From a virus (taxonomy: Duplodnaviria > Heunggongvirae > Uroviricota > Caudoviricetes), in IMG/VR virus record IMGVR_UViG_3300029498_000035: DNA of 5,719 nt. One strand, written 5' to 3'. Position numbers and translations under genes: made by a program. Below the pieces are notes generated by a model. It saw only the letters and a program-made list of their open reading frames with translations, was not told the DNA's origin and did not search any database. Shown here piece by piece: positions 1,201 to 2,031 of the stretch; the stretch's first letter is position 1; every line of letters starts with the position of its first letter.

Positions 1201-1229
1201 AATATAAACAGCCCCTCCGGAGAGGGGCT
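1201..1229 (-). terminator. intrinsic terminator hairpin (copy A of repeat), possibly bidirectional
   Basis: agcccctc-cgga-gaggggct (1210-1229) is an 8-bp GC-rich stem with a 4-nt loop. The plus A/T-rich run 1201-1209 gives uguuuauauu after the hairpin on the minus RNA. The hairpin also sits 36 nt after the stop of the plus-strand ORF 839-1174. Confidence 0.55.
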
Positions 1230-1363
1230 GGAGAGTGGCGCTATGTGCCATTGCATGGTGCCGGGTGCCTCCCGGTGAATTCAGTACCAGCACCTGAATC
1301 CGCGATTATCCCATATACCTACTCGCTGATTACCCCTCCGCACAGGGGGATTCACCATGCGAA
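1201..1363 (-). ncRNA. candidate small RNA (copy A), model only
   Basis: A conserved -35-like TTGTCT (minus; plus 1390-1395) and an A-rich -10-like region lie upstream. A 5'/3' inverted repeat caccatgc (1353-1360) and gcatggtg (1253-1260) would close the RNA. It ends at the terminator 1201-1229. No ORF is conserved between the two copies. Confidence 0.3.
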
Positions 1364-1420
1364 ATTTTTTAACAAACTTCCCGCCGGCCAGACAATAATC
1401 GCCAGCCTGAATTATGAGCA
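1210..1420. repeat. copy A of a ~210-bp diverged direct repeat (structured element)
   Basis: Shares with copy B the identical 20-nt hairpin, the block gcatggtgcc(g/a)gg(t/g)gcctcccggt(g/a)aattcag, a cccc-N8-gggg hairpin, the identical 18-mer gggggattcaccatgcga, and the block ttttaacaaa..ccagacaat(a/c)atc. Intervening blocks are only about 50% identical. Confidence 0.75.
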
Positions 1421-1455
1421 ACGTGGCATTTTACGGGAAAACTGTTTTCTGCAGT

Positions 1456-1478
1456 AAAAAGGCCCGCCGGAGCGAGCC
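1456..1478 (-). terminator. putative intrinsic terminator
   Basis: Plus ggcccgcc-gg-agcgagcc (1461-1478). On the minus RNA this reads GGCUCGCU-CC-GGCGGGCC with all 8 positions paired, two of them G.U wobbles that pair only in the minus-strand RNA. It is followed by UUUUUAC (plus A-tract 1456-1460). Confidence 0.45.
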
Positions 1479-1663
1479 TGGAAGGATAGCGGTCATGTGA
1501 TGCCGGTTTCCCGGTAACTCAGCATCGGTATCTGAGTCAACGTTTTCTCTACTGGGTCATTTCCGATACGTTCCGCCTTCCGGCAGACTTTCATCACGTC
1601 AGAAAATATAGCACCCTGAGTAACAGGACAGTACTCAGAATTCAGGAAACTGTGACACATCCT

Positions 1664-1692
1664 GCACAGAAAAGCCCCTCCGGAGAGGGGCT
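1664..1692 (-). terminator. intrinsic terminator hairpin (copy B of repeat)
   Basis: agcccctc-cgga-gaggggct at 1673-1692, identical to copy A. The minus RNA continues CUUUUCUGUG after the stem (plus 1664-1672). Confidence 0.6.
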
Positions 1693-1829
1693 GAAGTATA
1701 GCCTAATTTCTGTCTGTCGCATGGTGCCAGGGGCCTCCCGGTAAATTCAGCCTGTCTACTGAATTTGCATGTTCTCTGGATCATACACTTTGCCAGATGC
1801 CCCGCCGCTGAGGGGGATTCACCATGCGA
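1664..1829 (-). ncRNA. candidate small RNA (copy B), model only
   Basis: A conserved -35-like TTGTCT (minus; plus 1859-1864) lies upstream. The inverted-repeat arms and terminal terminator are as in copy A. ORF-track ORF 1635..1904 here has a TTG start and reads straight through the terminator hairpin, so it is probably not coding. Confidence 0.3.
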
Positions 1830-1888
1830 TGTTATTTTTAACAAATTCTCCGGCAGCCAGACAATCATCAAGCTGTGGAATTGTGAGG
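1673..1888. repeat. copy B of a ~210-bp diverged direct repeat (structured element)
   Basis: Same conserved blocks as copy A at an offset of about 463-469 bp. The long-range inverted repeat cgcatggtg (1718-1726) and caccatgcg (1820-1828) is present, and the second hairpin is at 1797-1816. Confidence 0.75.
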
Positions 1889-2031
1889 TATTTAAAAATT
1901 TCAACGGGTAACTGATACCCTGCTAATCGCCTGATGCTTTCTTTTTCAGCAACGGGAAAGCAACAACCACACACCCGCCACCAAAACACCATCAGACAGC
2001 ACCGACATTATCCGGCTGCTGAAGTCCACCA

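Follow-up and report, generated by a model that had tools for sequence, protein, structure and literature searches.

STnc100-type sRNAs of lambdoid prophages

STnc100 is a small RNA (sRNA) family, deposited as RF02076 ("Gammaproteobacterial sRNA STnc100"), that was first listed in Salmonella and is multicopy in E. coli and Salmonella prophages (Rfam RF02076). The locus analyzed here is a stretch of 5,719 nucleotides of tailed-phage DNA (IMG/VR record IMGVR_UViG_3300029498_000035; hereafter the window), which, read on its minus strand, represents the late-regulatory region of a lambdoid prophage of E. coli. Downstream of its phage tRNA genes, the window very probably carries three tandem, co-oriented STnc100-family sRNA genes in the order B, M, A, which are likely to act as Hfq-dependent, trans-acting base-pairing regulators.

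Several members of the family have been studied. In EDL933, 11 STnc100 copies are transcribed, most of them with low ribosome coverage, and one has been confirmed by Northern blot (PMC5331693). EcOnc27, also named sRNA103, is the copy that directly follows stx2B in the Stx2 phages of O157 (Tree et al. 2014, PMC4104026; PMC7873438; PMC12711010; PMC12370729) and binds Hfq (PMC4104026, PMC7873438). Single-nucleotide polymorphisms in this stx2-adjacent copy were among the best predictors of hemolytic uremic syndrome in a machine-learning study (PMC12711010). It was also reported that STnc100 promoters are bound by RpoD in Salmonella LT2 (PMC10794520), and a preprint ties STnc100 to PasD1/2 of enteropathogenic E. 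coli (EPEC) by structure and synteny (bioRxiv 10.64898/2026.05.13.724894). PasD1/2 have targets identified by ligation and sequencing of interacting RNAs (RIL-seq) with Hfq, and their seed was inferred to lie just 5′ of the terminator (PMC8550237). The PasA and PasD copies are dispersed, not in tandem (Zhu et al. preprint).

Genes A, B and M of the array

The initial annotation of the window had described two diverged tandem copies, here genes A and B, and read them as paralogous sRNA genes on the minus strand, roughly 155-165 nt in length. Its elements were found at exactly the positions given: the GC-rich 20-mer AGCCCCTCCGGAGAGGGGCT at 1210-1229 and 1673-1692 (0 expected in 200 shuffles), the long-range inverted repeat GCATGGTG...CACCATGC at 1253-1360 and 1719-1827 (arms 92 and 93 nt apart), the hairpin CCCC-N8-GGGG with a kept stem and a changed loop at 1333-1348 (tccgcaca) and 1800-1815 (gccgctga), and the -35-like minus-strand TTGTCT at the same relative position in both copies (1395-1390 and 1864-1859). 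Both 20-mer hairpins were scored as terminator-like on the minus strand, where the initial annotation had placed an intrinsic terminator for each copy; the region holds 9 such sites versus 2.1 ± 1.4 expected. The description of the intervening blocks as only half identical applies to the variable blocks, namely the internal variable segment (57%) and the linker (50%); overall, the copies are 71% identical, with 89% in the 5′ module and 78% in the P5-P6-P1′ block.

Both copies belong to STnc100, for which the curated gathering threshold is 47 bits (cmscan). Gene A matches RF02076 at 1388..1200 (-) with 132.5 bits (E 6e-30) and gene B at 1857..1664 (-) with 138.8 bits (E 1.4e-31), each over model positions 1-206, so that both pass by covariance-model score. 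They also lie where the family is located, past Q and the tRNAs (and stx, in phages that have it) and upstream of esterase/lysis genes of a lambdoid prophage, they show its helices P1, P2, P5 and P6 and its terminator with covariation, and they contain no conserved open reading frame (ORF). The two repeats are thus copies of a known sRNA family found in lambdoid and Shiga-toxin prophages, sharing with it the helices, the prophage location and the minus orientation relative to Q and the tRNAs. The Rfam search suggested by the initial annotation therefore gave a clear match to a described family, which by that annotation's own measure removes the novelty.

The count of two copies needs correction to three, as it overlooked a diverged STnc100-like sRNA gene, M, which lies between A and B on the minus strand. 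A repeat family of 27 nt is represented at 1207, 1457 (1457-1483) and 1670, and a terminator scan returned a third minus-strand terminator at 1479-1460. The Rfam model matches gene M at 1628-1453 (-) over its full length with 30.0 bits (E 0.001), and an nhmmer profile that itself included M gives an E value of 5e-41. Annotation pipelines miss gene M because its STnc100 score is only 30 bits. In a three-way alignment, every element of A and B is retained in M with different bases: three P1 pairs are altered on both sides relative to GCAUGGUG/CACCAUGC of A and B with pairing kept, and the P2 and terminator stems are rebuilt. The -10 element of gene M is better than those of A or B.

A second M allele (e.g., in L131) is 91% identical to the one in the window. 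In it, the mismatched P1 pair is restored, P2 persists, with one double change and two compatible ones on a single side, and the extended -10 TGcTATATT is identical. The M type was found in 673/5426 complete E. coli genomes and, in the arrays examined, sits between two canonical STnc100 genes; among the 29 full-length matches listed, no annotated feature lies under it. Gene M is best called a diverged, STnc100-like lineage, since it shares the architecture but is a non-member by the curated criterion. Its identification as a PasD orthologue was considered and rejected, as the identity is 51% and the 5′ module and terminator differ.

The probable transcript ends were derived by homology. The start of PasD2 estimated by RNA-seq (NC_011601 position 741157; PMC8550237 Table S6) aligns to the G of GCAUGGUG, which would place the starts near 1360 (A), 1599-1600 (M) and 1827-1829 (B), with ends past the terminators, and would give RNAs of ~159, 147 and 162-164 nt, respectively. 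For A and B, these sizes agree with the range first proposed. Since transcription would start at P1, the Rfam model begins ~29 nt upstream of the probable transcription start and thus appears to take in the -10 region of the promoter; its positions 1-29 correspond to window 1388-1361 and 1857-1830. An 11-nt complementarity between "STnc_100" positions 5-15 and stxB has been published (PMC12370729). If these positions follow the Rfam sequence, they are upstream of the probable start, and that pairing would then lie outside the RNA. Plus-strand promoter-like sites at 1369-1396 and 1838-1865 were also considered; their count is at chance level (4 vs 3.6), and they are a reverse reading of the minus-strand promoter elements.

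Structure, variable segments and function

The conservation of the structure was assessed on an alignment of 53 family sequences from IMG/VR contigs, non-redundant at 97% identity; the cross-genus diversity of this set comes from IMG/VR contigs only, whose host is unknown. In this alignment, 93.4% of cells pair, and double compensatory changes occur in 23/35 pairs versus 9.1 ± 1.8 after shuffling, with 0/500 shuffles reaching the observed value, so that the helices proposed initially do covary among homologues. When the 3′ partners are slid by 1-3 columns, pairing falls to 39-49%, a control that favors the tested structure (P1, P2, P5, P6 and terminator), which was derived from gene A. RNAalifold finds the same five helices unprompted, and the single-sequence folds of A, B and M each yield the family architecture (minimum free energy (MFE) -69.8, -67.2 and -50.3 kcal/mol; z -3.2, -4.3 and -2.8). 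An exact scan of genome contigs for the 14-mer CATGGTGAATCCCC gave 120 chance matches in unrelated phyla and 0 with the P1 partner.

The absence of a conserved ORF, claimed at the outset, held across the family. The ORFs 1245..1457 (+) and 1635..1904 (-) are present as listed, and coding readings of these and of ORF 1493-1660 (-) were rejected for want of a Pfam match and of a conserved frame; not one frame stays open in the full set of 53 homologues (best 31/53), and core lengths fall in all three mod 3 classes. The NCBI Prokaryotic Genome Annotation Pipeline (PGAP) annotates no non-coding RNA for A, B or M and places a plus-strand pseudo "hypothetical protein" antisense to gene A (window 1245-1370, L001 6096-6221, L003 4161-4286). 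A similar pseudo-CDS (coding sequence) is antisense to PasD2 in E2348/69. Such calls over structured sRNA genes are probably spurious.

These features suggest how the genes would work. Each gene probably has its own sigma-70 promoter, with -35 TTGTCT and extended -10 TGnTAAAAA in A and B and TGcTATATT in M, and its own Rho-independent terminator, and would produce an RNA of ~147-164 nt. The 5′ end of the RNA is predicted to pair with a stretch ~100 nt downstream, so that P1 would close a 5′ domain enclosing P2, a hypervariable segment, P5 and the near-invariant P6, followed by a hypervariable single-stranded linker and the terminator hairpin. The structured core might serve as a stable scaffold and protein-binding module, while the variable single-stranded segments, chiefly the linker 5′ of the terminator, would set the target specificity; the linker is proposed because the PasD seed occupies the same place. 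Host and prophage mRNAs would be bound in trans with Hfq, and the three paralogues may have different target sets. After induction, Q-modified polymerase would additionally transcribe through the array.

The alternative raised in the initial annotation, that the copies are cis elements of the late transcript, is less likely than sRNA genes; their terminators and stable structures would then insulate, attenuate or stabilize the Q-dependent late mRNA or stop tRNA read-through in the lysogen, with no free RNAs. In its favor, the array runs in the same direction as Q, the tRNAs and the late genes, lies between pR′ and the lysis genes and has three strong terminators in succession, and, by established lambda biology, Q-modified polymerase reads through, so that the array joins the late transcript after induction. 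However, a conserved promoter-like region precedes each copy, with the -35 TTG present in 48-52/53 homologues and the TTTGTTAAAA block in 40-51/53. Homologues are discrete, Hfq-bound RNAs of ~170 nt with the 5′ end at the start of P1 (PMC8550237, PMC4104026, PMC5331693), and a multi-helix 5′ domain with hypervariable single-stranded segments is unexplained by a terminator or insulator role, which makes a purely cis function quite improbable.

The distribution of conservation within the core points to a further function. Most covariation falls in P1, P5 and the terminator, and the P2 and P6 sequences are nearly invariant. At the P6 stem-loop junction, C-GGGA is invariant in 53/53 homologues, M type included, and PasD2 has it too; nowhere else does a stretch of similar length stay unchanged in every lineage. 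It could therefore be asked whether the RNAs mainly bind or guide a protein, such as CsrA or Hfq, or sponge sRNAs like the AsxR/AgvB class, and are not seed-pairing mRNA repressors. C-GGGA is more conserved than a 5-bp stem requires, PasD2 belongs to the most abundant CsrA-bound RNA pair in EPEC (bioRxiv 10.64898/2026.08.12.744399), and prophage sRNAs of the same slot act as anti-sRNAs (PMC4104026). On the other hand, half of the GGA lies within the stem, unlike the loop position of typical CsrA sites, and the GGA of P2 is not conserved, its third base being A, C or T. For PasD, numerous mRNA partners are Hfq-dependent and complementary to the seed (PMC8550237), and the CsrA-bound pair involves PasD2, not STnc100 proper. 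As the main role of the RNAs, protein binding or sponging is unlikely, and it is compatible with base-pairing regulation rather than exclusive of it.

The copies diverge most in two segments, an internal one that separates P2 from P5 and the linker that runs from P1 to the terminator. Variability is highest in the linker, which has ~33 versions among the 53 sequences; it is predicted to be single-stranded in M, but the MFE folds of A and B leave it partly paired. In A and M, the linker is rich in C and U (CACUCUCC and UAUCCUUCC, respectively), and Shine-Dalgarno regions could be its pairing partners. The family is also mosaic. The linker and terminator stem-loop of gene A are identical to those of the stx2-adjacent STnc100/EcOnc27 copy (L245), from which its internal segment and P5 differ; in L207, a promoter of the B type is joined to a body of the A type, and arrays of 2-4 copies have different flanking variants. 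This mosaicism would fit copies, especially M, that are decaying duplicates or "linker" homology patches for recombination among lambdoid prophages, with no RNA function. Such a reading is highly improbable, given that the helices are kept by compensatory changes in all lineages, that the changes separating the two M alleles leave pairing intact or re-establish it while the extended -10 stays the same, and that homologues are abundantly expressed (PMC5331693, PMC8550237).

Among these readings, trans-acting, Hfq-dependent sRNAs remain the favored one, and several points weigh against it. Gene M fails the curated STnc100 threshold (30.0 vs 47 bits). In A and B, the -10 hexamer TAAAAA ends without the T of the consensus and was missed by a consensus scanner, and the U-tail of gene A, UUUAUAUU, is poor, which makes it weak for termination and for Hfq binding. 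The near-invariance of P2 and P6 exceeds pairing needs and hints at a protein-binding role that may outweigh base pairing. The literature holds no validated target for any STnc100, and the published fimZ and espA effects were obtained by overexpression, with no mechanism assigned (PMC7873438, PMC12711010). What is said of expression, Hfq binding and the 5′ end is carried over from the literature on homologues, and for A, B and M in this prophage, expression is presumed, as are the seed location and the targets.

A bolder proposal is that the M type is a distinct, unnamed and unannotated sRNA lineage, that STnc100, PasD and M share an invariant protein-binding scaffold, with the C-GGGA of P6 as a possible CsrA or Hfq handle, and that two hypervariable "seed cassettes" are shuffled by recombination. 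This is conceivable but doubtful.

Prophage context, distribution and significance

The coordinates of the array and its surroundings are given in Table 1.

Table 1. Features of the sRNA array and of the surrounding prophage region (window coordinates).
Feature	Position	Strand	Basis or remark
sRNA array B, M, A	between DUF3927 ORF and iraM-like gene	-	three co-oriented tandem genes
sRNA gene A (STnc100), predicted RNA ~159 nt	1202..1360	-	Rfam match; 5′ end from PasD2 homologue
Gene A promoter-like region	1366..1395	-	-35 TTGTCT 1395-1390, 18-nt spacer, extended -10 TGtTAAAAA 1374-1366; putative function
Gene A P1	1360-1353 with 1260-1253	-	closing helix
Gene A P2 hairpin CCCC(U)/(A)GGGG	1348-1333	-	plus P5 and P6 hairpins
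Gene A linker AAUGGCACAUAGCGCCACUCUC		-	before terminator
Gene A intrinsic terminator	1209..1230	-	9-bp stem, loop UCCG, tail UUUAUAUU
sRNA gene M, predicted RNA ~147 nt	1454..1600	-	sub-threshold Rfam match, three-way alignment
Gene M extended -10 TGcTATATT	1605..1613	-	no good -35; putative function
Gene M P1 (A)CGUGAUG/CAUCACAU	within 1454..1600	-	one C·A mismatch pair
Gene M P2 UCUGCC-GGAA-GGCGGA	within 1454..1600	-	rebuilt with other bases
Gene M P6 CCGG-GAAA-CCGG	within 1454..1600	-	shortened
Gene M linker GACCGCUAUCCUUC		-	before terminator
Gene M intrinsic terminator AGGCUCGC-UCCG-GCGGGCCU, then UUUUUAC	1460..1479	-	terminator scan
sRNA gene B (STnc100), predicted RNA ~162-164 nt	1666..1829	-	Rfam match; inverted repeat
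Gene B promoter-like region	1835..1864	-	-35 TTGTCT 1864-1859, extended -10 TGtTAAAAA 1843-1835; putative function
Gene B P1, extendable to 10 bp	1829-1820 with 1726-1717	-	inverted repeat
Gene B linker GACAGACAGAAAUUAGGCUAUACUU		-	before terminator
Gene B intrinsic terminator, tail UUUUCUGU	1673..1692	-	inverted repeat and terminator scan
C-GGGA	alignment columns 194-199, 205-208; window 1274-1269 (A), 1740-1735 (B)	-	alignment of 53
DUF968/NinG-like	5162-5686	-	window gene order
RusA	4775-5149	-	window gene order
Q antiterminator	3957-4778	-	Pfam Antiterm, E 2e-49
Terminator just downstream of Q	3874-3859	-	CCCGCC-GCCU-GGCGGG, then U6
Small ORF	3533-3817	-	window gene order
DNA methylase	2333-3382	-	Pfam N6_N4_Mtase match
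CAU-anticodon tRNA	2208-2283	-	Met by ARAGORN; Ile by PGAP in homologous loci
tRNA-Arg(UCG)	2122-2198	-	phage tRNA gene
DUF3927 small ORF, between tRNAs and sRNA array	1946-2062	-	Pfam PF13064, E 6e-11; PGAP in homologous loci
iraM-like gene, convergent	839-1174	+	111-aa ORF, NCBI name anti-adapter protein IraM
DUF1737 fragment (67-aa ORF, truncated nanS-p esterase)	390-593	-	Pfam DUF1737 match

The whole window is 98% identical to prophages of many E. coli genomes, such as NCTC86. In the examined Stx2a phage, the order is tRNAs, stx2A, stx2B, STnc100 (185.7 bits, 75 nt past stxB) and esterase, and in E2348/69 it is Q, DUF3927, PasD2 and esterase. The DUF3927 ORF of the window thus holds the position of stx2AB, and DUF3927 also precedes PasD2. 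This synteny makes the sRNA gene a regular neighbor of the cargo slot and not its content; the initial annotation, which had placed the repeats in the toxin slot of Stx phages, was right about the neighborhood only.

With regard to EcOnc27/sRNA103, the array has in common the family, the position upstream of the nanS-p esterase gene and, in gene A, an identical linker and terminator stem-loop; it differs in the internal variable segment and P5 of gene A and in the absence of stx genes from the window. PasD1/PasD2 (EcOnc13) of EPEC E2348/69 share synteny, the 5′ module GCAUGGUGAAUCC and the overall fold, and are of similar length (172 nt). Nevertheless, PasD2 scores 41 bits to STnc100, its global identity is only ~55% to gene A and 51% to gene M, and the PasD seed UGUGAG was not seen in the three copy sequences when they were inspected by eye, with no pattern search. 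Membership in PasD, which would call for BLAST-level similarity and for the seed 5′ of the terminator, is thus not supported, and the relation is at the superfamily level only. AsxR and AgvB likewise occupy the interval from pR′ to the lysis genes in lambdoid prophages and are bound to Hfq (PMC4104026), but they are 51-60 nt long, on the opposite strand and of another family. An Rfam scan for them (RF02703, RF02702) gave no match in the window on either strand at E up to 1. Convergent plus-strand AsxR/AgvB partners were likewise discarded, as there is no Rfam match and the plus-strand reading of the hairpin has no T-run. IpeX of DLP12, a ~167-nt sRNA of the same slot next to nmpC, was also considered; homology was not borne out, with no STnc100 match at the gathering threshold in the K-12 region 570-582 kb, and the likeness is positional only.

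Adjacent paralogous sRNA genes are also known from bacterial chromosomes. The pairs OmrA/OmrB and PrrF1/PrrF2 belong to the core genome and have known regulators and targets, and each gene has its own promoter and terminator and combines conserved with divergent blocks. The array resembles these pairs of E. coli and Pseudomonas, respectively, which are cited in the Zhu et al. preprint, in the adjacency of its paralogues, in the probable promoter and terminator of each gene and in its conserved and divergent blocks, but it is phage-borne, its structured core is far larger, and its variable segments are cassette-like. It also differs from the 11 EDL933 copies of STnc100, whose start coordinates are well separated (PMC5331693).

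Tandem organization is not confined to the window. Arrays of 2-4 family members occur in 19/111 IMG/VR loci with a match. L128 has four above-threshold STnc100 matches just downstream of tRNAs (2265-3380, -), and L188 has two canonical STnc100 genes in direct tandem in the same position (1363-1843, +). L128 matches almost nothing in the phage collection (no more than 32 nt) and may come from another host genus. No published description of STnc100 genes in tandem was found. The 801-bp array of the window is covered at ≥80% in 656/5426 complete E. coli genomes.

Some other features of the region were noted. About 85 nt past the Q stop, the strong intrinsic terminator at 3859-3874 (-) is preceded by TTGATT-N16-TAAATT, located by eye (region to ~3950), for which a consensus promoter scanner made no call. 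This unit looks like a pR′-tR′ pair that would make a short leader RNA, comparable to lambda 6S RNA or StxS of Stx phages. The assignment of the CAU tRNA as Ile by PGAP parallels ileZ of Stx phages. Some relatives (strain M217, L001) carry the CAU tRNA alone, with neither the methylase nor tRNA-Arg, and keep an identical sRNA array. The ORF named IraM, which has no Pfam match, is inserted in convergent orientation, flanked by the sRNA array and the esterase gene, with a perfect 10-bp inverted repeat across its stop codon (hairpin 1146-1175); it may be a moron affecting host RpoS stability. The nanS-p-type esterase gene (SASA family, N-terminal DUF1737) is ~1.5 kb shorter than in NCTC86, L003 1783-3274 being absent from the window. 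At the junction (window ~359-373), the two BLAST pieces overlap by 15 nt, which suggests a microhomology-mediated deletion.

Taken as a whole, the locus is explained by a known family, the array is present unchanged in hundreds of genomes, and the finding is mostly ordinary. The additions are modest, comprising a diverged, unannotated middle gene and a tandem, cassette-like organization. STnc100-type sRNAs flank Shiga-toxin genes, and a direct target or mechanism has not been established in the literature, a question to which the window adds little. In practical terms, the family can form a three-gene array of which one member escapes Rfam-based annotation, and RefSeq (PGAP) annotates 0/3 of the sRNA genes and instead an opposite-strand pseudo "hypothetical protein". 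The two divergent segments are where to look for target specificity and, if the proposal of an invariant scaffold with shuffled cassettes were true, tandem arrays would be a phage-borne way to diversify regulatory specificity.

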